Notes: generated by a model from the letters alone, not told the origin. DNA of 64,000 nt from Candidatus Zhuqueibacterota bacterium (GCA_036351795.1 JAZBPW010000114.1:647-64646); one strand, 5' to 3'; numbered from the stretch's first letter, positions 13,255 through 34,351 are shown. Made by a program: numbers and translations.

Positions 13255-13312
13255 TCGTTTCAAAAAGATCAGACAGGACAACAGGATGAACATAATAAGG
13301 TAATAAGGTCGG

Positions 13313-13400
13313 ATTTCAGCACCGTTAGGTGCGACATATTTATAGCTGGATTGAATTCGTACGTTTTATAAGTGCCGTAGGCACGATATATGATAGCATA
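13313..13400. repeat. Two copies of a short hairpin unit with compensatory stem changes
   Basis: cagCACCgttaGGTGcgacatatttatagc versus aagTGCCgtaGGCAcgatatatgatagc. The stems are GCACC/GGTGC versus GTGCC/GGCAC, i.e. two covarying pairs, and the tail GAyATAT..ATAGC is conserved. Confidence 0.6.
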
Positions 13401-13480
13401 ATAATTTCAGATTGTTACATAATGTGATTGAATCGTAAGGTTGACGCGCATGCGCAAAGCGGGAAGGATCCAGAATAAAG

Positions 13481-13688
13481 CATTATTAACGCGCATTGGC
13501 AAACATCTTGTCTGGATTCCCGCTAACAGCATGCGGGAATGACAACGGGGAATGATCGATGCGTAAGTGAATGTCATCACCGCACAACTACGCGGGAGGG
13601 AATCAGTAGGAGTCATTGTTAACGCGCATTGGCAAACATCTTGTCTGGATTCCCGCCAAAAGCATGCGGGAATGACAACGAGGAATGA
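13481..13688. repeat. Two 75-nt direct repeats (13481-13555, 13614-13688; 71/75 identical), each with an ATTCCCGC/GCGGGAAT hairpin
   Basis: Hand alignment of cattRttaacgcgcattggcaaacatcttgtctggattcccgc...gcgggaatgacaacgRggaatga. A degenerate inverted partial copy lies near 13455-13475. Confidence 0.8.
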
Positions 13689-13737
13689 ACTGAGCACATG
13701 TGAGCTGTATCTTTTAACAACGATTTAAGGGAAAGTC

Positions 13738-16897: not shown

Positions 16898-17072
16898 TCT
16901 GAATGCATCGGTGAGGCATGAGCGATAAATTTAGAGATCATCTTCATCGGTGAATATATACAACCCGCTACAATGGGAATATGATGAATACAATAAATGA
17001 TGGTTGATCGAATTGTTGTAGAAACATGATGAATCCTTTCATACGAATATTACAAATTATTATTTTGGGCAA

Positions 17073-17774
17073 ATGATGAAAACAATCGGATTAATCGGGG
17101 GCATGAGCTGGGAATCCACTGTCAGCTATTACAAGGCCATCAACGAAGGAGTAAAGGCACGTCTTGGTGGCCTTCATTCAGCCAAAATTTGCATGGTTAG
17201 TGTTGATTTTCATGAGATTGAAATCATGCAGCATCGAGGCGACTGGGACGCGACTTCTAATATTCTGGTCAAAGCCGCGCGTTCTGTCGAAGCCGGTGGC
17301 GCAGATTTTCTACTCATATGCACCAATACCATGCATAAAGTGGCGCCACAGATAGAAGCAGCCGTCACTATCCCGGTGCTGCATATTGCCGATGCCACGG
17401 CCGAAAAATTAAAAACAGACGGCATCAGTCGCGTTGGACTGCTCGGCACCAGATTCACCATGGAACAGGAATTTTACAAAGACAGAATAAAAGATAAATT
17501 CGACATCGATGTTTTGATCCCGAATGATCAGGAACGCGATATCATTCACAGCATCATCTATGACGAACTCTGTCTTGGAAAGATAGAGAGTGAATCCCGT
17601 GAACAGTATATCGGGATCATCGAAGCGTTGCATGCAAAGGGCGCGCAGGCAGTGATACTCGGCTGTACCGAAATCGCGCTGCTTGTTCAACAGGAGCATA
17701 CCGAAGTGTCATTGTACGACACAGCTGCCATTCATGCCGCAGCCGCAGTCGACATGTCATTAATTCATGAGTAA
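17073..17774 (+). CDS. Aspartate/glutamate-racemase-family amino-acid racemase (YgeA-like)
   Basis: MKTIGLIGGMSWESTVSYY N-terminus plus the LICTNTMH and ILGCTE cysteine blocks of the Asp/Glu racemase superfamily. 233 aa. Confidence 0.85.
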   Translation: MMKTIGLIGGMSWESTVSYYKAINEGVKARLGGLHSAKICMVSVDFHEIEIMQHRGDWDATSNILVKAARSVEAGGADFLLICTNTMHKVAPQIEAAVTIPVLHIADATAEKLKTDGISRVGLLGTRFTMEQEFYKDRIKDKFDIDVLIPNDQERDIIHSIIYDELCLGKIESESREQYIGIIEALHAKGAQAVILGCTEIALLVQQEHTEVSLYDTAAIHAAAAVDMSLIHE

Positions 17775-17831
17775 CCACGGTCAGCTTTTTTATCCACTCA
17801 ATCGGTCCTACAAGACAATAAAAAAAAATGC

Positions 17832-17859
17832 TTGACTTTTACAAAAAATGTATTATATT
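17832..17859 (+). promoter_or_regulatory. Sigma-70-like promoter candidate for the ATP-grasp/KamA operon
   Basis: TTGACT (17832-17837), a 16-nt spacer, then TATATT (17854-17859). An A-tract lies upstream. Confidence 0.35.
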
Positions 17860-17943
17860 CAGTCGCTTTCCAATCACATTTCAATCAGCATCATATTCAT
17901 GTGATGAGGCAATTTCGATTGAATCTCAACTAAGGAATTAGAA

Positions 17944-18267
17944 ATGATTAAAGAGACTGATGGCAGATTCCGCCCGCCAAATAAAAATGAATTCGAGGAT
18001 GAGGATGACAAACCCCCATCCATAGCACTTTCGGATCAGACGAATCCGCTCCCCTCTGATGCAGGGATATGTTCTCTGACCCCGCGTGACAGTTCCCTGG
18101 ATATATGCTCAAACGGTTTAGCACGCACTTTTCTGAGACCCGTCAAAGATTATCCGAGCAATTTTCTGATGCAATTTTTACAGCAGGTGAATTTAAGAAA
18201 TAGTCCATTCGATACCGATATGAAATATTGTATCGTTGATGTGACTGCTGTAAATGAGCCAAATTAA
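17944..18267 (+). CDS. Small (107 aa) acidic, Pro/Ser/Asp-rich protein; first gene of the ATP-grasp operon (candidate substrate/precursor or accessory protein)
   Basis: AAGGA (17932-17936) lies 7 nt before the ATG. The stop falls 13 nt before the SD-led start of the next gene. I recognise no homology, so coding status is uncertain. Confidence 0.4.
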   Translation: MIKETDGRFRPPNKNEFEDEDDKPPSIALSDQTNPLPSDAGICSLTPRDSSLDICSNGLARTFLRPVKDYPSNFLMQFLQQVNLRNSPFDTDMKYCIVDVTAVNEPN

Positions 18268-27708: not shown

Positions 27709-29679
27709 TTATTTCAATTTAACGATCTTGATAGTCTGAATGTTCGATAAATGCGCTGCCCTGACGTAATAGATGCCTGATACGACATCATTGGCATTGT
27801 CATCCAAACCATCCCAGCGTATTCTGTGGCGGCCTGCTTCACGCGCTTCAGACAAAAGAGTACGGACAAGCTGGCCGGAGACATTATAGATCGCCACCTT
27901 CACATTTCCTGCTTCCGGCATTTCAAATTCGATCCGTGTATCCGGGTTGAATGGATTCGGATAGTTTTGCATCAGAGCGAAGGAGGCAGGCTGCAATAGC
28001 TCGTCACTTCCGGCCACGGAGGTCACCGGCTTTTCCAGTTTGATCTTTGTGACGGTAGCGATCTCACCCGATGCCATCTCCTGGACGAAAGCGATCAAAT
28101 GACAATTCTCCTGAACAACATTTGGCGGGATCTGAACATCTGTCGTATCAGAGATCACCAGTCCCTTTGCCGGCGGAGCATCTTCTTCATAGAGTGTTTT
28201 TCCATTCTGGTCAGGGTACATCGCTCTGGCGACATGCTGCAGCGAATCCAGCCCCTGCCAGCTTTTGGCGATATGTGATTCGCTGAGAGCATAAAACAAC
28301 CGGTACGATTTCAACAGAGAGACCCCTTCATATTTCGTATTCGTCGTCGCAGTCAGTGCCCCATTACCATGATACATGACATCAAGTTCAATGGAGAATC
28401 CGGTGTTTTCCTCGATGCCGGCGAGATAAAGATCATGATACATGTTATACAACGGAAACCAGTTCGATGCTGAAGATCCGCCGACGACTCCGTTGATGCC
28501 ATTAAATATCGCAGTCGGATAACCGGTAATCCTGTAATAACCGATGCGGCTTCTTGACATTTCATTTTCATAGGAATCACCACCATGATATTCGAGCACA
28601 GCAATATCATCAGGGTAATTGGTGGTCAAATGATCCACACAAACCGCAGAACCGGGACAGTATCCACACCAGGTCCCTGTCGCTTTTTCTATGAGGATAC
28701 GTCCCTTTTTCGAAGTGAATGTGTTTACATCCACGACAAAGATATCATTGCTGACATCCATATCGCTCGGAGCAATGGTCTGTACGAAATATGTGTATTG
28801 AACATTACCGGGAAATGCAATGTATTTGAAAGTGACATCAGCGCTGTTCCCGGGTGCCAGATCGTTCACACTTTTCGTATCGAGTACTTTCATTGAACCG
28901 TCCCACTGATAATACCCGAAATGTACATCGAATGATTCGGCATTCAATCCGACATTCCTGACCTTGCCAACCGGCTGCAGAAATTCGCCGGGTTCATAGT
29001 GCCTATCCAGATTCAGTGACATTGCTTTGACGTCGTGTGCGTCTGGTTCAAGCACAGAGACGTCATCGATATACCAGCGGTCGGCATCGGTCCCCGTATA
29101 GTGAAACGCGATATAAACAGTCGGATTGCCAAGGTAATTTGAAAGATCGATCTCAAACGGATTCCCTGCAAACGTATTGATCACGTGTGAACTGGGTCTC
29201 ATTTCCAGAACCGACTCGAAAGTCGACAGATCAGTCTGCGACGTCGTCGATATCTTAACCGCGTGATAGTTGCCATAATTCGCCCAGTATGATTCATCCT
29301 CATAAAACTCAAGCATTGCGGCAGGTGCATCCGAAAGGTCGACCGCAGGTGTTATCAGCCATTCATCCATGGTCTCATTGGCTGAACAATAATTTAAGAA
29401 GATGGATTGCATACCGTTGTGCGAACGGGACGCCGTCAGCGCCCATTCCTCGTTCGCGTTTCCATTAGAAATGGTTACCCAGCCTTCTGGAATTGTTGCA
29501 CCTTCAAAAGATTCATATAAATGTTTTTTGTAAGGCGCAGTGGGGGACAGTTGAGTGATGACAGGTTGATTGAACACTGTCGCCATCTCATTTTCGTTAA
29601 ACCGCAGCATCTTCACCTGAGCCAGAACAGTCGTGGATGATACGAGAACAATAAGCGCAACCAGTATCAGTCTCCGCAT
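27709..29679 (-). CDS. Secreted multi-domain protein: choice-of-anchor-J-like N-domain, Omp28-related thioredoxin-like domain (CGYC), T9SS CTD
   Basis: Signal peptide, then ESFEGATIPEGWVTISN, then EKATGTWCGYCPGS, and a CTD LMQNYPNPFNPDTRIEF..VAIYNVSGQLV..IKIVKLK. Confidence 0.75.
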   Translation of the reverse strand: MRRLILVALIVLVSSTTVLAQVKMLRFNENEMATVFNQPVITQLSPTAPYKKHLYESFEGATIPEGWVTISNGNANEEWALTASRSHNGMQSIFLNYCSANETMDEWLITPAVDLSDAPAAMLEFYEDESYWANYGNYHAVKISTTSQTDLSTFESVLEMRPSSHVINTFAGNPFEIDLSNYLGNPTVYIAFHYTGTDADRWYIDDVSVLEPDAHDVKAMSLNLDRHYEPGEFLQPVGKVRNVGLNAESFDVHFGYYQWDGSMKVLDTKSVNDLAPGNSADVTFKYIAFPGNVQYTYFVQTIAPSDMDVSNDIFVVDVNTFTSKKGRILIEKATGTWCGYCPGSAVCVDHLTTNYPDDIAVLEYHGGDSYENEMSRSRIGYYRITGYPTAIFNGINGVVGGSSASNWFPLYNMYHDLYLAGIEENTGFSIELDVMYHGNGALTATTNTKYEGVSLLKSYRLFYALSESHIAKSWQGLDSLQHVARAMYPDQNGKTLYEEDAPPAKGLVISDTTDVQIPPNVVQENCHLIAFVQEMASGEIATVTKIKLEKPVTSVAGSDELLQPASFALMQNYPNPFNPDTRIEFEMPEAGNVKVAIYNVSGQLVRTLLSEAREAGRHRIRWDGLDDNANDVVSGIYYVRAAHLSNIQTIKIVKLK

Positions 29680-29687
29680 GTAACCTC

Positions 29688-30869
29688 CTAATGAATTGAT
29701 GATTGAATGATTTCTCCGGTGGTATAATCTTGAATGAAAGCAATGACCTTGCTGTTGGTATAGCTCCAGTCAGGCCAGGAAATAGAATAGGATTTTAGAA
29801 GAGTAGATGTAGCGGTACCCAGATCGTCCCCGTTTCTGGACGATAGGAAGGTGCGAAAAACATAGTTAAAATTCGTCATGCCGTTACTGCCGGGCGGCGA
29901 GGAAAGGTTGATATTGTTTTCGATGACAGATACATACAGCCGCCACGGATTGTTTCCGAATTCTCCATTTAGATTATGGATCTCGACAACAACCGTTAAC
30001 GAACAATCGAGAAGCTTTTTATCAATGGAAATGCCGATATCAGAACGCATATTCGCTTTCTGCGTTTCAAAGACCCCTTTCATTTCCGAAAGATCGAGCG
30101 GATCCACTTTTTCGGAGCCGCCTATCCGCAAGGCGGGCAGGGCAGCGACGGAATAGTCGGATAGTCGCTGGGTGACATCCTGAGGTGAAACCATGTAGAA
30201 TGGATCGTTTGGACTGGGCCAGTTGGCAAAATACTCGATCACGGCCACTTCATCGGCCTGCCGTGAGTTGAGAAATTTATGGAGCGTATCTGTGGCAGCA
30301 ACGCATGGCACGCACGATACATTTGCAAAAGACTCCAGAAGAACACGCTGAATGACGTTCAGACTGGCCTCGATTCGCTGGGTTGAATCTTTCCGGACAT
30401 CGATCATTCGCTCATCAAATTGATAACCGTTCTTCGCCAGTTGGAGCGAGCGCGTTCCTGTCTCCAGCTGCACTGTATCCGGAGTAATATTACCCGTTCC
30501 GACTCCATCAACAATGATATGTGCGCCTGAGGGAACCGAAAATACGCTGACATATCCGAAATCGATCAGTTTCTCAAATGTGAAACCCGCCCGACTCAGT
30601 TTATTTTCTTCAACCTGCACATTCACAGAATCCGGTATGCTGCGATGACCATCGACATAGACATTGACGATATGTGGGCCCACAGCCACATTGCATAACG
30701 TATCGGGCGTTGTCTTACCGGTTGACACAGCATCAAGAAATATATTTCCACTGATTTCACCAGAATCGACTAATATAGAACCAACGGCACCGCTAGTCTC
30801 CAGATCAACAGGTTGTTTTACACCGCAGTTCGCAACCAGGATAATAAGAAATAGAATCTGTTTTTTCAT
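29688..30869 (-). CDS. Lipoprotein with two PEGA-like domains and an Omp28-related thioredoxin-like domain (CVPC)
   Basis: MKKQILFLIILVANC is lipobox-like. PEGA-like blocks are VPSGAHIIVDGVGTGNITPD and LDAVSTGKTTPD. The ESFANVSCVPCVAAT block follows. Confidence 0.7.
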   Translation of the reverse strand: MKKQILFLIILVANCGVKQPVDLETSGAVGSILVDSGEISGNIFLDAVSTGKTTPDTLCNVAVGPHIVNVYVDGHRSIPDSVNVQVEENKLSRAGFTFEKLIDFGYVSVFSVPSGAHIIVDGVGTGNITPDTVQLETGTRSLQLAKNGYQFDERMIDVRKDSTQRIEASLNVIQRVLLESFANVSCVPCVAATDTLHKFLNSRQADEVAVIEYFANWPSPNDPFYMVSPQDVTQRLSDYSVAALPALRIGGSEKVDPLDLSEMKGVFETQKANMRSDIGISIDKKLLDCSLTVVVEIHNLNGEFGNNPWRLYVSVIENNINLSSPPGSNGMTNFNYVFRTFLSSRNGDDLGTATSTLLKSYSISWPDWSYTNSKVIAFIQDYTTGEIIQSSIH

Positions 30870-30958
30870 GCCCTTCTCAAAATTGTTCTTAATATAGATG
30901 TATTTCCCTGTAAAATCAAGTGGATTCAGAAAAATAGTAATTGACGCTCATTTAAAAC

Positions 30959-30987
30959 TTGACATTTGTGATGAAATGTTTTATATT
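30959..30987 (+). promoter_or_regulatory. Consensus sigma-70 promoter of the ileS leader (TTGACA-17-TATATT)
   Basis: TTGACA at 30959-30964, an exact 17-nt spacer, then TATATT at 30982-30987. The same hexamers and spacing recur at 42412 and 60301. Confidence 0.6.
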
Positions 30988-30997
30988 TATGAAATTT

Positions 30998-31087
30998 ATG
31001 ATATCAATAGAGCTGACAATGAAGACCATTATTATTGGAATAATTACGATCATGATACGCCCCCCTCTACAGGCAGAGGGATCCTAG
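30998..31087 (+). CDS. Ile-rich leader peptide of the ileS attenuator (29 aa: MISIELTMKTIIIGIITIMIRPPLQAEGS)
   Basis: Hand-translated; it is the only open frame through the leader. Nine of 29 codons are Ile (ATA/ATT/ATC), seven of them within 31028-31057. An alternative start at ATG 31019 gives a 22-aa peptide. The stop is TAG at 31085-31087. Confidence 0.6.
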   Translation: MISIELTMKTIIIGIITIMIRPPLQAEGS

Positions 31088-31152
31088 CAGGACTTTTTTT
31101 CACGTTTTTACCAAACCCGCTGCCGATAAAATATTTCACAGCGGGTTTTTTT
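31062..31152 (+). promoter_or_regulatory. Transcription attenuator: mutually exclusive hairpins 1:2, 2:3 and 3:4
   Basis: The 1:2 hairpin is CCCTCT(31063-68)/AGAGGG(31075-80). The 2:3 hairpin is GGCAGAGGG(31072-80)/CCCGCTGCC(31116-24), 8 of 9 bp. The 3:4 hairpin is the terminator. A weaker hairpin TCCT/AGGA plus T7 (31094-31100) also lies here. Confidence 0.6.
31114..31152 (+). terminator. Intrinsic terminator inside the ileS 5' leader
   Basis: 9-bp stem AACCCGCTG(31114-22)/CAGCGGGTT(31139-47) running into a T7 tract (31146-31152). It is on the same strand as ileS and 55 nt upstream of it. The upstream gene is divergent, so it does not terminate that gene. Confidence 0.75.
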
Positions 31153-31207
31153 ATTACCTTTCGTTATTTTTTGTATAATTAACAGTCTTAATTCAGGACA
31201 CACAATC

Positions 31208-34200
31208 ATGTTAAAAAAAGTGAATACACAGGCTGATTTTGTAGCCATTGAACACAAGATACTCGATTTTTGGAAAGAGAAAAAATCCTTCGAAAAACTG
31301 GTTGAGAAAAATAAGGGAAACACCCGCTGGTCTTTTCTCGATGGCCCGATCACTGCAAACAATCCCATGGGCGTCCATCACGCCTGGGGCAGAACTTACA
31401 AGGATCTTTATCAGAGATACCACGCGATGCTCGGACACGATCAGAGATACCAAAACGGATTTGATTGCCAGGGACTCTGGGTGGAAGTGGAGGTTGAAAA
31501 AGAGCTTGGGATCAAATCCAAGACCGATATCGACGAATACGGTATTGAAAATTTTGTCAAGAAATGCAAAGATCGTGTTATCAAGTACTCGAAGATACAG
31601 ACAGATCAATCCATCCGACTCGGTTACTGGATGCAGTGGGACAACTCCTATTACACCATGGCGGATATAAACAACTATACGATCTGGCTTTTTCTGAAAA
31701 AATGTTTTGATAAAGGCTGGATTTACAAAGGAAATGACGTGATGCCGTGGTGCATCAACTGCGGTGCGGCGATGTCCCAACACGAGATCGCCACAGAGGG
31801 TTACCGCGAAATGCAGCATATGAGCATTTACGTGACATTTCCCATTGCCGACAGGAAGAATGAGAGCCTTCTTGTATGGACCACGACTCCCTGGACGCTT
31901 CCGGCAAACGTCGGGGCAGCAGTTCACCCGGAATTCACGTACGTTAAAGTCCGGCAAAACGGACACATCTACTATCTCGTGAAGGATCGTCTGCTGGAGG
32001 TCGTCGCTCCGAAAGGCGAATATGAAGTCCTTGAAGAATTGCAGGGGAAATCACTCGAAGGCCTCGAATTTCATTCTCCGTTCGAGGAGCTGCCCGCACA
32101 ACAGGGCGTGACACATCCGGTACTCGTCTGGGATGAAGTGAGCGCCGATGACGGGACAGGAATCGTACATATCGCTCCCGGCTGTGGAAAGGAGGACTTT
32201 GCACTTGGCAAGGAGCAGGGGCTGGCTGCAATCGCGCCGCTTGATCAGTTTGGCACATTTATCGATGGATTCGATTGGTTGACCGGGAAAAATGTCATGG
32301 ACGTTGCGGAGCCGATCATCGCGGATCTAAAAGAAAAACGCATTCTGTACAGAACAGCAAAAATCACTCACCGCTATCCTGTGTGCTGGCGTCATGGAAC
32401 AGAACTCGTCTTCCGCCTGGTTGATGAATGGTTCATCAGGATGGATGAGCTGCGTCACCAGATCATGGAAGTGACCAAAAAGATCAAGTGGATGCCGGAA
32501 TACGGAATGCAGCTCGAGCTTGACTGGTTGAAAAATATGAGCGACTGGATGATCTCGAAGAAGCGGTACTGGGGTCTGGCTTTGCCAATTTTTGAATGCA
32601 GTGAATGCGGACACTTTGAAGTCATCGGCGGCATTGAAGAACTGAAGGAGAGGTCCGTGGAAGGATGGGACAAGTTCGAAGGACACTCCCCTCACAGGCC
32701 ATGGATCGACCAAGTCAAAATCGAGTGTGCAAAGTGTGGCGCCAGGGTAAACAGAATCAAAGATGTGGGCAATCCCTGGCTCGATGCCGGCATCGTCCCC
32801 TATTCCACCATGGGCTATCTTGAGAACAGAGCGCACTGGGAAAAATGGTTTCCAGCCGATTTCATCACAGAATGTTTCCCCGGGCAGTTTCGCAACTGGT
32901 TTTATGCTATTCTGGCCATGAGCACTGTGATGGAGAACAGGGAGCCATTCAAAACGGTGCTGGGGCACGCGCTGGTCCACGATGAGCACGGTGAAGAGAT
33001 GCACAAGAGCTCGGGAAATGCCATCTGGTTCGATGATGCCGCGGAAAAAATGGGTGTTGACACCATGCGCTGGATGTTCGCCGAACACAATCCATTCACC
33101 AATCTGAATTTCGGCTATGGACCAGCAAAGGATATCCGCAAGCATCTGTTGACGCTTTGGAATACATACGCATTCTGGACAAACTACGCAATTCTCGATG
33201 ATATCGATCCCGCCGAACTACAGGCCGATCGCTCTGAAATGGCCGAAATCGATCGATGGGTATTGGCAAAACTTCAGGAACTGACAAAAATTGCACGTAA
33301 AAACTACGATGAGTTCACCATTCTGACATTCATGAAGAAAGCCGAAGAGTTCATCGATGATCTTTCCAACTGGTATGTGCGCAGAAACAGAAGAAGATTC
33401 TGGAAAAGTGAAAAGGATAACGACAAAAAGGTCGCTTATTACACGCTGCACAAGGTGCTGATGGCGCTTATCAAGCTGCTTGCACCTGTCATCCCGTTTA
33501 TCACTGAGGAGATCTATCAGAATCTCGTGGATACGGATGACGAATCCTTTCCGGAATCCATTCATCACTGTGACTTTCCTGAAGTAGAAGATGCATTTGT
33601 GGATGAAAAACTCGTTGCAGAGATTGATCAGGTGATCGCCATAGTGAAGGCTGGCAGAGCCTTGCGCAGTAAAAGCAACATGAAGGTTCGCCAGCCATTA
33701 TCCGAACTGGTCGTGCGGCCGGATGCTTCGATGGACACAGCCTCACTTCTAAAGTATGAAGATCATATTAAGGAAGAACTGAATATCAAGAAGTTGAGTT
33801 TTGTAAAAGAAAACTCTGACCTGGCTCAATATGAATTAAAGGTCGACTTCAAGAAATTAGGACCCAAATACGGCAAGGATGTTCCGCTTATTCAGAAGGC
33901 GTTGTCTCAGATGAAACCGGATGAAGTCGCCAGACAGGTGAAGGCGCAGGTTCACATTGAGGTTCCGCTTGGAGAGAAAAAAGCAGTACTGGAACCTGAT
34001 GAGATCACTATAGAAACGAAAGCAAAGGAGGATTTTGTCGTCCTCGAAAGCAACGGCAGCCTGCTTGGATTGAACACACACCTGAGCGAAGCGCTTCTTT
34101 CCGAAGGTGTCGCAAGGGATCTGGTCAGACACATTCAGGAACTGCGCAAAGAGGCCGATTTTGAGATGAATGACAAAATACATCTCTTTCATGATGCCTC

Positions 34201-34351
34201 CGAAAAGGTACGCCTGGTTTTCGAAAAGCATGCCGACTACATAAAGGCTGAGACGCTCTCCCTGGAAATTCATGATACATTGGAAAGCGATCTGGTGCAG
34301 AAGGAGATCAAGCTGGGATCTGAAAAGCTGGTTATCGGTGTAAAAAAATAA
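31208..34351 (+). CDS. ileS: Isoleucyl-tRNA synthetase
   Basis: 1047 aa. The layout parallels Thermus-type IleRS (GPITANNPMGVHHAWGR HIGH region, GIKSKTDIDEYGIENF, VMPWCINCGAAMSQHE, HKSSGN KMSKS-like region). Confidence 0.93.
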   Translation: MLKKVNTQADFVAIEHKILDFWKEKKSFEKLVEKNKGNTRWSFLDGPITANNPMGVHHAWGRTYKDLYQRYHAMLGHDQRYQNGFDCQGLWVEVEVEKELGIKSKTDIDEYGIENFVKKCKDRVIKYSKIQTDQSIRLGYWMQWDNSYYTMADINNYTIWLFLKKCFDKGWIYKGNDVMPWCINCGAAMSQHEIATEGYREMQHMSIYVTFPIADRKNESLLVWTTTPWTLPANVGAAVHPEFTYVKVRQNGHIYYLVKDRLLEVVAPKGEYEVLEELQGKSLEGLEFHSPFEELPAQQGVTHPVLVWDEVSADDGTGIVHIAPGCGKEDFALGKEQGLAAIAPLDQFGTFIDGFDWLTGKNVMDVAEPIIADLKEKRILYRTAKITHRYPVCWRHGTELVFRLVDEWFIRMDELRHQIMEVTKKIKWMPEYGMQLELDWLKNMSDWMISKKRYWGLALPIFECSECGHFEVIGGIEELKERSVEGWDKFEGHSPHRPWIDQVKIECAKCGARVNRIKDVGNPWLDAGIVPYSTMGYLENRAHWEKWFPADFITECFPGQFRNWFYAILAMSTVMENREPFKTVLGHALVHDEHGEEMHKSSGNAIWFDDAAEKMGVDTMRWMFAEHNPFTNLNFGYGPAKDIRKHLLTLWNTYAFWTNYAILDDIDPAELQADRSEMAEIDRWVLAKLQELTKIARKNYDEFTILTFMKKAEEFIDDLSNWYVRRNRRRFWKSEKDNDKKVAYYTLHKVLMALIKLLAPVIPFITEEIYQNLVDTDDESFPESIHHCDFPEVEDAFVDEKLVAEIDQVIAIVKAGRALRSKSNMKVRQPLSELVVRPDASMDTASLLKYEDHIKEELNIKKLSFVKENSDLAQYELKVDFKKLGPKYGKDVPLIQKALSQMKPDEVARQVKAQVHIEVPLGEKKAVLEPDEITIETKAKEDFVVLESNGSLLGLNTHLSEALLSEGVARDLVRHIQELRKEADFEMNDKIHLFHDASEKVRLVFEKHADYIKAETLSLEIHDTLESDLVQKEIKLGSEKLVIGVKK

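Follow-up and report, generated by a model that had tools for sequence, protein, structure and literature searches.

Most of what is known about the regulation of ileS concerns T-boxes in Firmicutes and Actinobacteria; in other lineages its control is poorly defined. The window (the whole stretch of DNA analysed, 64,000 nucleotides from Candidatus Zhuqueibacterota bacterium) carries an ileS gene on its plus strand (31208..34351), whose product is an isoleucine--tRNA ligase of 1047 aa that belongs to the long, MupA-like type (TIGR00392, 763.5 bits, cutoff 621). A sequence-only reading of this locus had proposed attenuation of the trp/ilv/pheM type, with a leader peptide rich in isoleucine as the sensor. 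The question raised by the locus is whether the region upstream of ileS works in this way. A conserved ORF, covarying helices and constant spacing in related genomes support the proposal, and the element is, in our judgment, very probably a classical ribosome-mediated transcription attenuator that tunes ileS to the supply of Ile-tRNA(Ile).

The leader of ileS in the window

The coordinates and sequences given earlier for the promoter, the ORF, the RNA segments, the stop codon and ileS were all exact on a scripted check. The 5′ neighbour is an Omp28-like lipoprotein gene on the minus strand (29688-30869) and is divergent, as had been described. The sigma-70-type promoter TTGACA-17-TATATT (30959..30987, plus strand), which had been called perfect, is present; it agrees with the consensus at 11 of 12 positions, and the region has no better site. 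Transcription would be expected to start at approximately 30994. The motif TTGACA-17-TAT(A/T)TT was also found 5′ of the leader in nine related loci (L001, L002, L083, L162, L163, L166-L169), and the distance from this conserved consensus promoter to the ATG at 31019 is 31 nt.

The predicted leader peptide ORF, MKTIIIGIITIMIRPPLQAEGS followed by TAG, occupies 31019..31087 on the plus strand, with the stop codon at 31085-87; its frame, length and C-terminus were kept in all 14 leaders compared below. The frame could also start further 5′, at 30998 or 30989. In the longer version from 30998 (30998-31087) it reads MISIELTMKTIIIGIITIMIRPPLQAEGS, and the four plus-strand ATGs of the leader (30989, 30998, 31019 and 31052) all share the leader frame. 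The earlier statement that this is the only open frame holds for ATG frames within the transcribed leader; it does not hold for a 94-aa ORF in a different frame (30898-31182), which begins 5′ of the promoter. Translation had been expected to be leaderless or to start at the second ATG. When the peptide was aligned with those of the relatives (MKTIII..., MKAIII...), the second ATG (31019) came out as the likelier start, in preference to the leaderless alternative. With this start the 5′ UTR would be approximately 25 nt long, which would remove the problem of near-leaderless translation. Shine-Dalgarno-like sequences 5′ of the leader ATG are weak or variable, and this weighs against the attenuator reading.

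As had been noted, 9 of the 29 residues of the longer frame are Ile, and seven of them are packed into 10 codons at 31028..31057 (plus strand), a run that ends ATC ATG ATA. In 5000 dinucleotide-preserving shuffles of 30988-31207, no ATG ORF with at least 7 Ile in 10 residues was obtained, and the shuffle maximum of 6 Ile in 10 residues was obtained once. Because no shuffle matched its density, the Ile run is not a mere effect of AT-richness. A chance mix of AT-rich spacer, terminator-like hairpin and accidental ORF would be helped by the composition of the intergenic region, since 33% G+C favours ATT and ATA codons. The shuffles contradict it, as does the finding of the same covarying architecture in 14 lineages with IleRS differing by 20-34%, and on these sequence comparisons chance is effectively refuted. 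When the other intergenic regions of the window were scanned for uORFs with amino-acid runs, none was found except a weak Ile-containing ORF at 17026-17076. That ORF, which lies before a racemase gene, was considered as another leader and judged a chance occurrence.

Four RNA segments follow the Ile run on the plus strand. Segment 1 (CCCTCT, 31063..31068) pairs with 31075-31080 and forms hairpin 1:2. Segment 2 (GGCAGAGGG, 31072..31080) supplies the 3′ strand of that hairpin and also the 5′ strand of the antiterminator. Segment 3 (CCCGCTGCC, 31116..31124) pairs with 31072-31080 in the antiterminator and with 31139-31145 in the terminator, and segment 4 is CAGCGGG followed by T7 (31139..31152). 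The intrinsic terminator as a whole spans 31113..31152; its stem, AAACCCGCTG/CAGCGGGTTT, joins 31113-31122 with 31139-31148 in 10 G+C-rich base pairs around a loop of 16 nt, and the T7 run lies at 31146-31152. A consensus terminator scan gave no call at this terminator, whose 16-nt loop exceeds the 8-nt limit of the scan. The ATG of ileS (31208) lies 55 nt past the T-run. As proposed, pairing 2:3 (8 of 9 bp, of which 7 are G:C) and the terminator are mutually exclusive, and the two have 7 nt in common.

The stop codon lies 4 nt 3′ of segment 2, and the last Ile codon begins 8 nt 5′ of segment 1. The minimum free energy (MFE) fold of the free leader RNA (-35.1 kcal/mol, z = -2.6) consisted of hairpin 1:2, a mini-hairpin and the terminator. 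The mini-hairpin (TCCT-AGC-AGGA, 31082..31100, plus strand) covers the leader stop, and a C and a T7 run come after it. In relatives it was not kept, which makes it particular to the window; it may be a candidate RNA polymerase pause site.

Distribution and conservation in the KSB1 clade

A protein identical (100%) to the IleRS of the window is encoded on a 64.8-kb contig of a metagenome-assembled genome labelled 'candidate division KSB1 bacterium'. In the protein database, approximately 45 IleRS clusters form a clade with it at 66-80% identity, and IleRS from other phyla reach 61% at most; the named clusters of the clade are mostly labelled KSB1. Loci with ileS were taken from one genome per species, from metagenome contigs and from exact-protein look-ups. 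Very general peptide patterns applied to metagenome contigs added at least three clade members, and a protein search with the IleRS N-terminus, which returned mostly fragments, added two usable loci and a truncated one. This resulted in 13 distinct clade loci (L001-L003, L081-L083, L162, L163, which is identical to L164, and L165-L169). Together with the window they provide the 14 leaders of the alignment used here (A5); one further locus, L161, ends inside the terminator.

The same architecture was found in all 13 distinct ileS loci examined from the clade, which span the whole range of 66-80% identity in full-length IleRS, so that both the Ile-rich ORF and the alternative pairings proposed from the window recur in its relatives. 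The arrangement consists of a promoter (in most loci), an Ile-rich ORF of 21-31 codons (for example MKAIIISNFIRIIIIGIITIIIYIPRLAEGP and MNLIIIKNINRNRIIGIITIIIQIPHLAEGP), a hairpin that overlaps the ORF at its 3′ end, a linker without conservation and a terminator that begins CCACTGCC and ends in 6-9 T. A uORF with at least 5 Ile in 8 residues was confined to clade loci when 161 ileS loci, each with 150 nt or more of upstream sequence, were compared, and the leader architecture of the clade was absent from all of the roughly 150 ileS loci that represent other phyla. The 5′ core of the terminator, CC(A/G)CTGCC, occurred once per clade locus and always 5′ of ileS, with no further occurrence in the 862 kb scanned. 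Among the relatives, the neighbour of the leader away from ileS varies and the leader is constantly found with ileS, which indicates that the element travels with ileS.

Isoleucine made up 20-45% of the leader peptides overall, compared with 7.8% in the genes of the window. In the nine leaders tabulated, Ile represented 23-45% of the residues, and Leu and Val together contributed at most 4 in 30. The enrichment reads as amino-acid-specific and not as one of general hydrophobicity. Five leaders of deeper branches held just 6-7 Ile in 26-30 residues, which weighs against the attenuator reading.

The third codon positions of the leader ORF were the most variable (summed entropy 10.4, compared with 4.5 for position 1 and 6.9 for position 2), and the C-terminus ...I(M/I)I x x P x L A E G P* was common to the 14 leaders. 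In 13 of 14 leaders, the last Ile codon of the run lay 9 sense codons 5′ of the stop, with L163 (8 codons) as the exception, and this last codon was ATA in 12 of 14. The triplet ATC-AT(G/T/C)-ATA stood at a constant distance from the stop in 11 of the 14 leaders and one codon nearer in L163. More generally, the spacing of the regulatory codons and the stop to the RNA segments was ungapped and constant in 13 of 14 leaders. By contrast with this spacing, which is fixed, the linker between the leader stop and segment 3 measured roughly 30-50 nt and was conserved in neither sequence nor length.

A short hydrophobic product, encoded between a strong promoter and an intrinsic terminator, would also suit a free-standing gene for a small membrane peptide (type I toxin-like, or a regulatory micropeptide) that adjoins ileS only incidentally. 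The window contains a perfect TATAAT at 31174-79, past the terminator, which could serve ileS separately in that case. The composition and the location of the element speak against such a gene. The hydrophobic residues are nearly all Ile, within the limit on Leu and Val given above for the nine leaders, although a membrane helix tolerates Leu, Val, Phe and Ala. The conservation of the C-terminus overlaps RNA helices that covary with the terminator, the element stays just 5′ of ileS despite its changing other neighbour, and the downstream TATAAT was not kept in relatives. We regard a free-standing peptide gene as highly improbable. Against the preferred reading, a leader-peptide attenuator, the TATAAT could drive some attenuator-independent transcription of ileS in the window.

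Alternative helices and the proposed switch

Folding of the 14-sequence alignment with RNAalifold, without guidance, gave the long-range 2:3 antiterminator as the consensus structure, with 12 pairs, of which 3 had compensatory changes. When the helices were scored directly, 81.8% of cells were paired in the antiterminator, compared with 28-50% when the partner strand was slid by 1-3 columns. Four of its pairs were compensatory, both sides had changed in 14 cells, and none of 500 shuffles equalled its covariation score; a 9-sequence version of this count was also made. The covarying positions are CTTGG:CCAAG, CCTGG:CCAGG and GTTGG:CCAAC. In most relatives the antiterminator was a helix of 12-13 bp, longer than in the window, and it drew in the hairpin 1:2 loop together with the 5′ portion of the loop of the terminator. 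One internal mismatch of the antiterminator was kept in 12 of 14 leaders, and presumably keeps the helix from excess stability.

In the terminator, 85.7% of cells were paired over the 14 sequences, compared with 33-55% for slid partners, and three pairs were compensatory, including one that is G:C in the window and A:U in relatives. Its covariation score was matched in 2-4 of 500 shuffles. In 12 of 14 leaders, hairpin 1:2 had an energy between -7.4 and -10.8 kcal/mol; it was weak or nearly absent in L003 and L163, and register-shifted in L166. No covariation was found in hairpin 1:2 across the 14 leaders, and it was invariant in most of them. The covariation that the earlier reading had proposed to look for in all three pairings was recovered for 2:3 (4 pairs) and 3:4 (3 pairs) and was absent for 1:2. 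Two of the 14 leaders lack hairpin 1:2 or have it in a weak form, and the conserved route to termination would therefore be a ribosome at the stop that masks segment 2.

Folding agreed with the switch that had been proposed. The free RNA of the window gave hairpin 1:2 and the terminator, and when segment 1 was masked and segment 4 was absent, the MFE structure held the 2:3 helix, as it did in all 14 leaders. Two results on stability weigh against the attenuator reading. In the window, hairpin 1:2, the antiterminator and the terminator had energies of -9.6, -14.3 and -16.2 kcal/mol, respectively; the antiterminator, which is among the weakest of the family, is slightly weaker than the terminator and would have to win kinetically. 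In approximately half of the relatives, the free RNA folds into the antiterminator at equilibrium, so termination there would need hairpin 1:2 to form co-transcriptionally or a ribosome to be present at the stop.

The alternative helices are the best-supported part of the element, and the same helices could be worked by a signal other than a stalled ribosome, such as binding of IleRS or another protein, uncharged tRNA or an unspecific sensing of translation rate. Autoregulation by a protein that binds its leader is familiar from thrS and the ribosomal proteins of E. coli. The deeper members of the clade, with merely 6-7 Ile codons, would also be compatible with such a switch. Its difficulty is that it would need neither the reading frame nor the Ile codons, nor the distances from these codons to segment 1 and the stop, and yet all of these are conserved. 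The linker is unconserved, no aptamer-like or protein-binding structure was evident, and Rfam gave no T-box or other family at the gathering score. Specifically, no T-box match was obtained over 30700-31400 up to E = 10, nor window-wide at the gathering score, and at that score Rfam returned nothing in the whole window or in 20 related loci (L001-L003 included). A non-stalling signal is thus an improbable explanation, if a less remote one than a free-standing peptide gene. As judged from these searches, the element lies outside the described Rfam families, though it would work like the leader families.

Three sub-threshold matches of a permissive Rfam scan were taken as chance: Trp_leader (16 bits against a gathering score of 41, E = 2.3), STnc180 (26.8 against 50), where the match rests on the terminator stem and AT-rich sequence, and anti-hemB.

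Under ribosome-mediated attenuation, the steps of the switch would be as follows. Transcription would begin at approximately 30994 from the conserved TTGACA-17-TATATT promoter, and a ribosome would read the 22-codon leader from the ATG at 31019. With ample Ile-tRNA(Ile), this ribosome would cross the seven Ile codons and reach the TAG at 31085, where it would mask segment 2 (31072-80); if the leader were not translated, segment 2 would be locked up in hairpin 1:2. In either case segments 3 and 4 would be left to pair, and the terminator (31113-31152) would stop transcription 55 nt short of ileS. If isoleucine or the activity of IleRS were low, Ile-tRNA(Ile) would be scarce, and the ribosome would stall within the Ile run. 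The decisive stall would place the AUA codon at 31055-57 in the A site, so that segment 1 (31063-68) is covered and segment 2 is free. Segment 2 would then pair with segment 3 on its emergence, the terminator would not form and RNA polymerase would enter ileS.

A ribosome covers approximately 12-13 nt of mRNA 3′ of the first base of the A site. With this footprint, and with the AUA codon 8 nt from segment 1, a ribosome stalled there would mask segment 1 and leave segment 2 free, and the AUA at 31055-31057 is accordingly our inferred critical stall site. Such a switch would provide homeostatic control of IleRS, and inhibitors of IleRS would, in the attenuator reading, also trigger the response.

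A narrower version is that the switch is tuned to the minor, AUA-decoding tRNA-Ile2. It is suggested by the positioning codon, which is AUA in 12 of 14 leaders, and by the fact that AUA is the rarest Ile codon in the genes of the window (17% of Ile codons). The lysidine-modified anticodon of tRNA-Ile2 is an identity element for IleRS. We consider this version rather doubtful. If it were true, ileS would track the charging or modification of one minor tRNA and not bulk isoleucine.

Known counterparts and meaning for KSB1

Classical attenuation of a synthetase operon is exemplified by pheST, while Firmicutes synthetase genes use T-boxes, none with classical attenuation, and ileS of Actinobacteria carries translational T-boxes (PMC1262725). 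His leader peptides have been predicted on hisS paralogues in bacilli, and sensors have been swapped between lineages (Naville & Gautheret 2010, PMC2965389).

By analogy, the closest counterpart of the KSB1 element is pheM-pheST of E. coli. Both would combine a synthetase gene, a leader ORF enriched in codons for the cognate amino acid and alternative hairpins, and the logic would be equal: low charged tRNA leads to a stall, read-through and more synthetase. The pheM-pheST system differs in that it responds to Phe, belongs to Gammaproteobacteria and has no sequence similarity to the KSB1 element, which is best read as having arisen independently, or at the least as a family of its own.

The leaders ilvL (of ilvGMEDA) and thrL of Enterobacteria also contain Ile codons and act by a stalled ribosome. 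The ilvL peptide ends ...VVIIIPPCGAALGRGKA. In the KSB1 leader, as in ilvL, Pro codons come after the Ile run, and they form the G+C-rich segment 1. However, ilvL and thrL are multivalent (Ile/Val/Leu and Thr/Ile, respectively) and control biosynthetic operons, whereas the KSB1 leader is essentially Ile-only and precedes a synthetase gene.

The T-boxes of ileS share with the KSB1 element the gene and the signal, the charging of tRNA-Ile, and in Firmicutes the output is likewise a choice between terminator and antiterminator. The difference lies in the sensor, since a T-box binds uncharged tRNA directly and without translation, whereas the predicted sensor in KSB1 is a ribosome on the uORF. The hisS-paralogue leaders of bacilli resemble the KSB1 element as predicted attenuators on a synthetase-family gene where T-boxes are usual; they concern a different amino acid, gene and phylum and are likewise known from computation alone.

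Neither a leader-peptide attenuator on ileS, here Ile-specific and apparently kept across candidate division KSB1, nor an Ile-specific leader peptide on any synthetase gene was described in the full-text literature searched; for ileS this agrees with the earlier reading. Priority is not fully excluded, as Lopatovskaya et al. 2010, reportedly a survey of attenuation of amino-acid and aminoacyl-tRNA operons, was outside the scope of the search.

The switch is neat yet mechanistically unsurprising. With pheM-pheST and the predicted hisS-paralogue leaders, it would join the cases of classical attenuation on a synthetase gene, and it would be a further case of one gene that acquired different sensors in different lineages. 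The ORF of roughly 30 codons deserves annotation as a leader peptide (ileL-like) and not as a hypothetical protein, and the 14-sequence alignment could seed an RNA family. The attenuator reading also implies that transcription and translation would be coupled in KSB1. More speculatively, leader peptides may have on the synthetase genes of KSB1 the role that T-boxes have in other phyla. For a whole uncultivated, phylum-level lineage the element offers a concrete mechanism by which ileS would be regulated.

Isoleucine codons and the antiterminator mismatch

The last isoleucine codon of the run was AUA in 12 of the 14 leaders in the alignment that includes the window (A5 columns 24-26; window 31055-31057), and its spacing was fixed at nine sense codons ahead of the stop codon (eight in L163, the ileS locus of one KSB1-clade relative). 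AUA was the least used isoleucine codon in the genes of the window (17% of isoleucine codons). Overall, the leaders preferred ATT and ATA, whereas the genes preferred ATC (55%).

The antiterminator contained a single internal mismatch (A5 columns 45/109; window 31077/31119), which was A:A, A:G or G:A and was retained as a mismatch in 12/14 sequences. This mismatch may tune the stability of the antiterminator against that of the terminator.

Additional elements in the leader and the terminator-ileS spacer

A mini-hairpin, TCCT-AGC-AGGA followed by C and T7, spans the leader stop codon (31082-31100) and has hairpin 1:2 directly on its 5′ side. It could act as an RNA polymerase pause site that keeps polymerase and ribosome in step. 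The mini-hairpin was not conserved among the relatives, the sole exception being a T8 run between the leader stop codon and segment 3 in locus L083.

The spacer that separates the terminator from the ileS ATG contains a perfect -10 hexamer, TATAAT (31174-31179), from which basal transcription of ileS could bypass the attenuator. The corresponding -35 is poor and is positioned inside the terminator T-run, and the hexamer was not conserved in the terminator-ileS spacers of relatives. The length of this spacer varied from 33 nt to approximately 205 nt among clade members, including the spacers at L081 (1308-1500), L082 (1296-1500) and L083 (1344-1500).

Neighboring genes and other regions of the window

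A small ORF, MMNPFIRILQIIILGK, with an isoleucine-containing run was found at 17026-17076, where it overlaps the beginning of the gene for an Asp/Glu racemase (17073-17774); the ORF and its run are probably due to chance. Two intergenic regions of approximately 480 nt each (13255-13737 and 17775-18253) showed neither an Rfam match at the gathering score nor an obvious gene.

Three relatives have in common an upstream, divergent gene (L002 1278-2063, L081 120-920 and L163 1-792, minus strand), whose product carries the motif ...GIYNYCDRWCERC... in its N-terminal part; the motif looks like a cysteine cluster. The neighborhood in the window lacks this gene. Two tandem Omp28-like proteins are encoded on the minus strand of the window (27709-30869), and the larger one combines a choice-of-anchor J domain with a type IX secretion C-terminal sorting domain. 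This fits an organism of the FCB group (KSB1).
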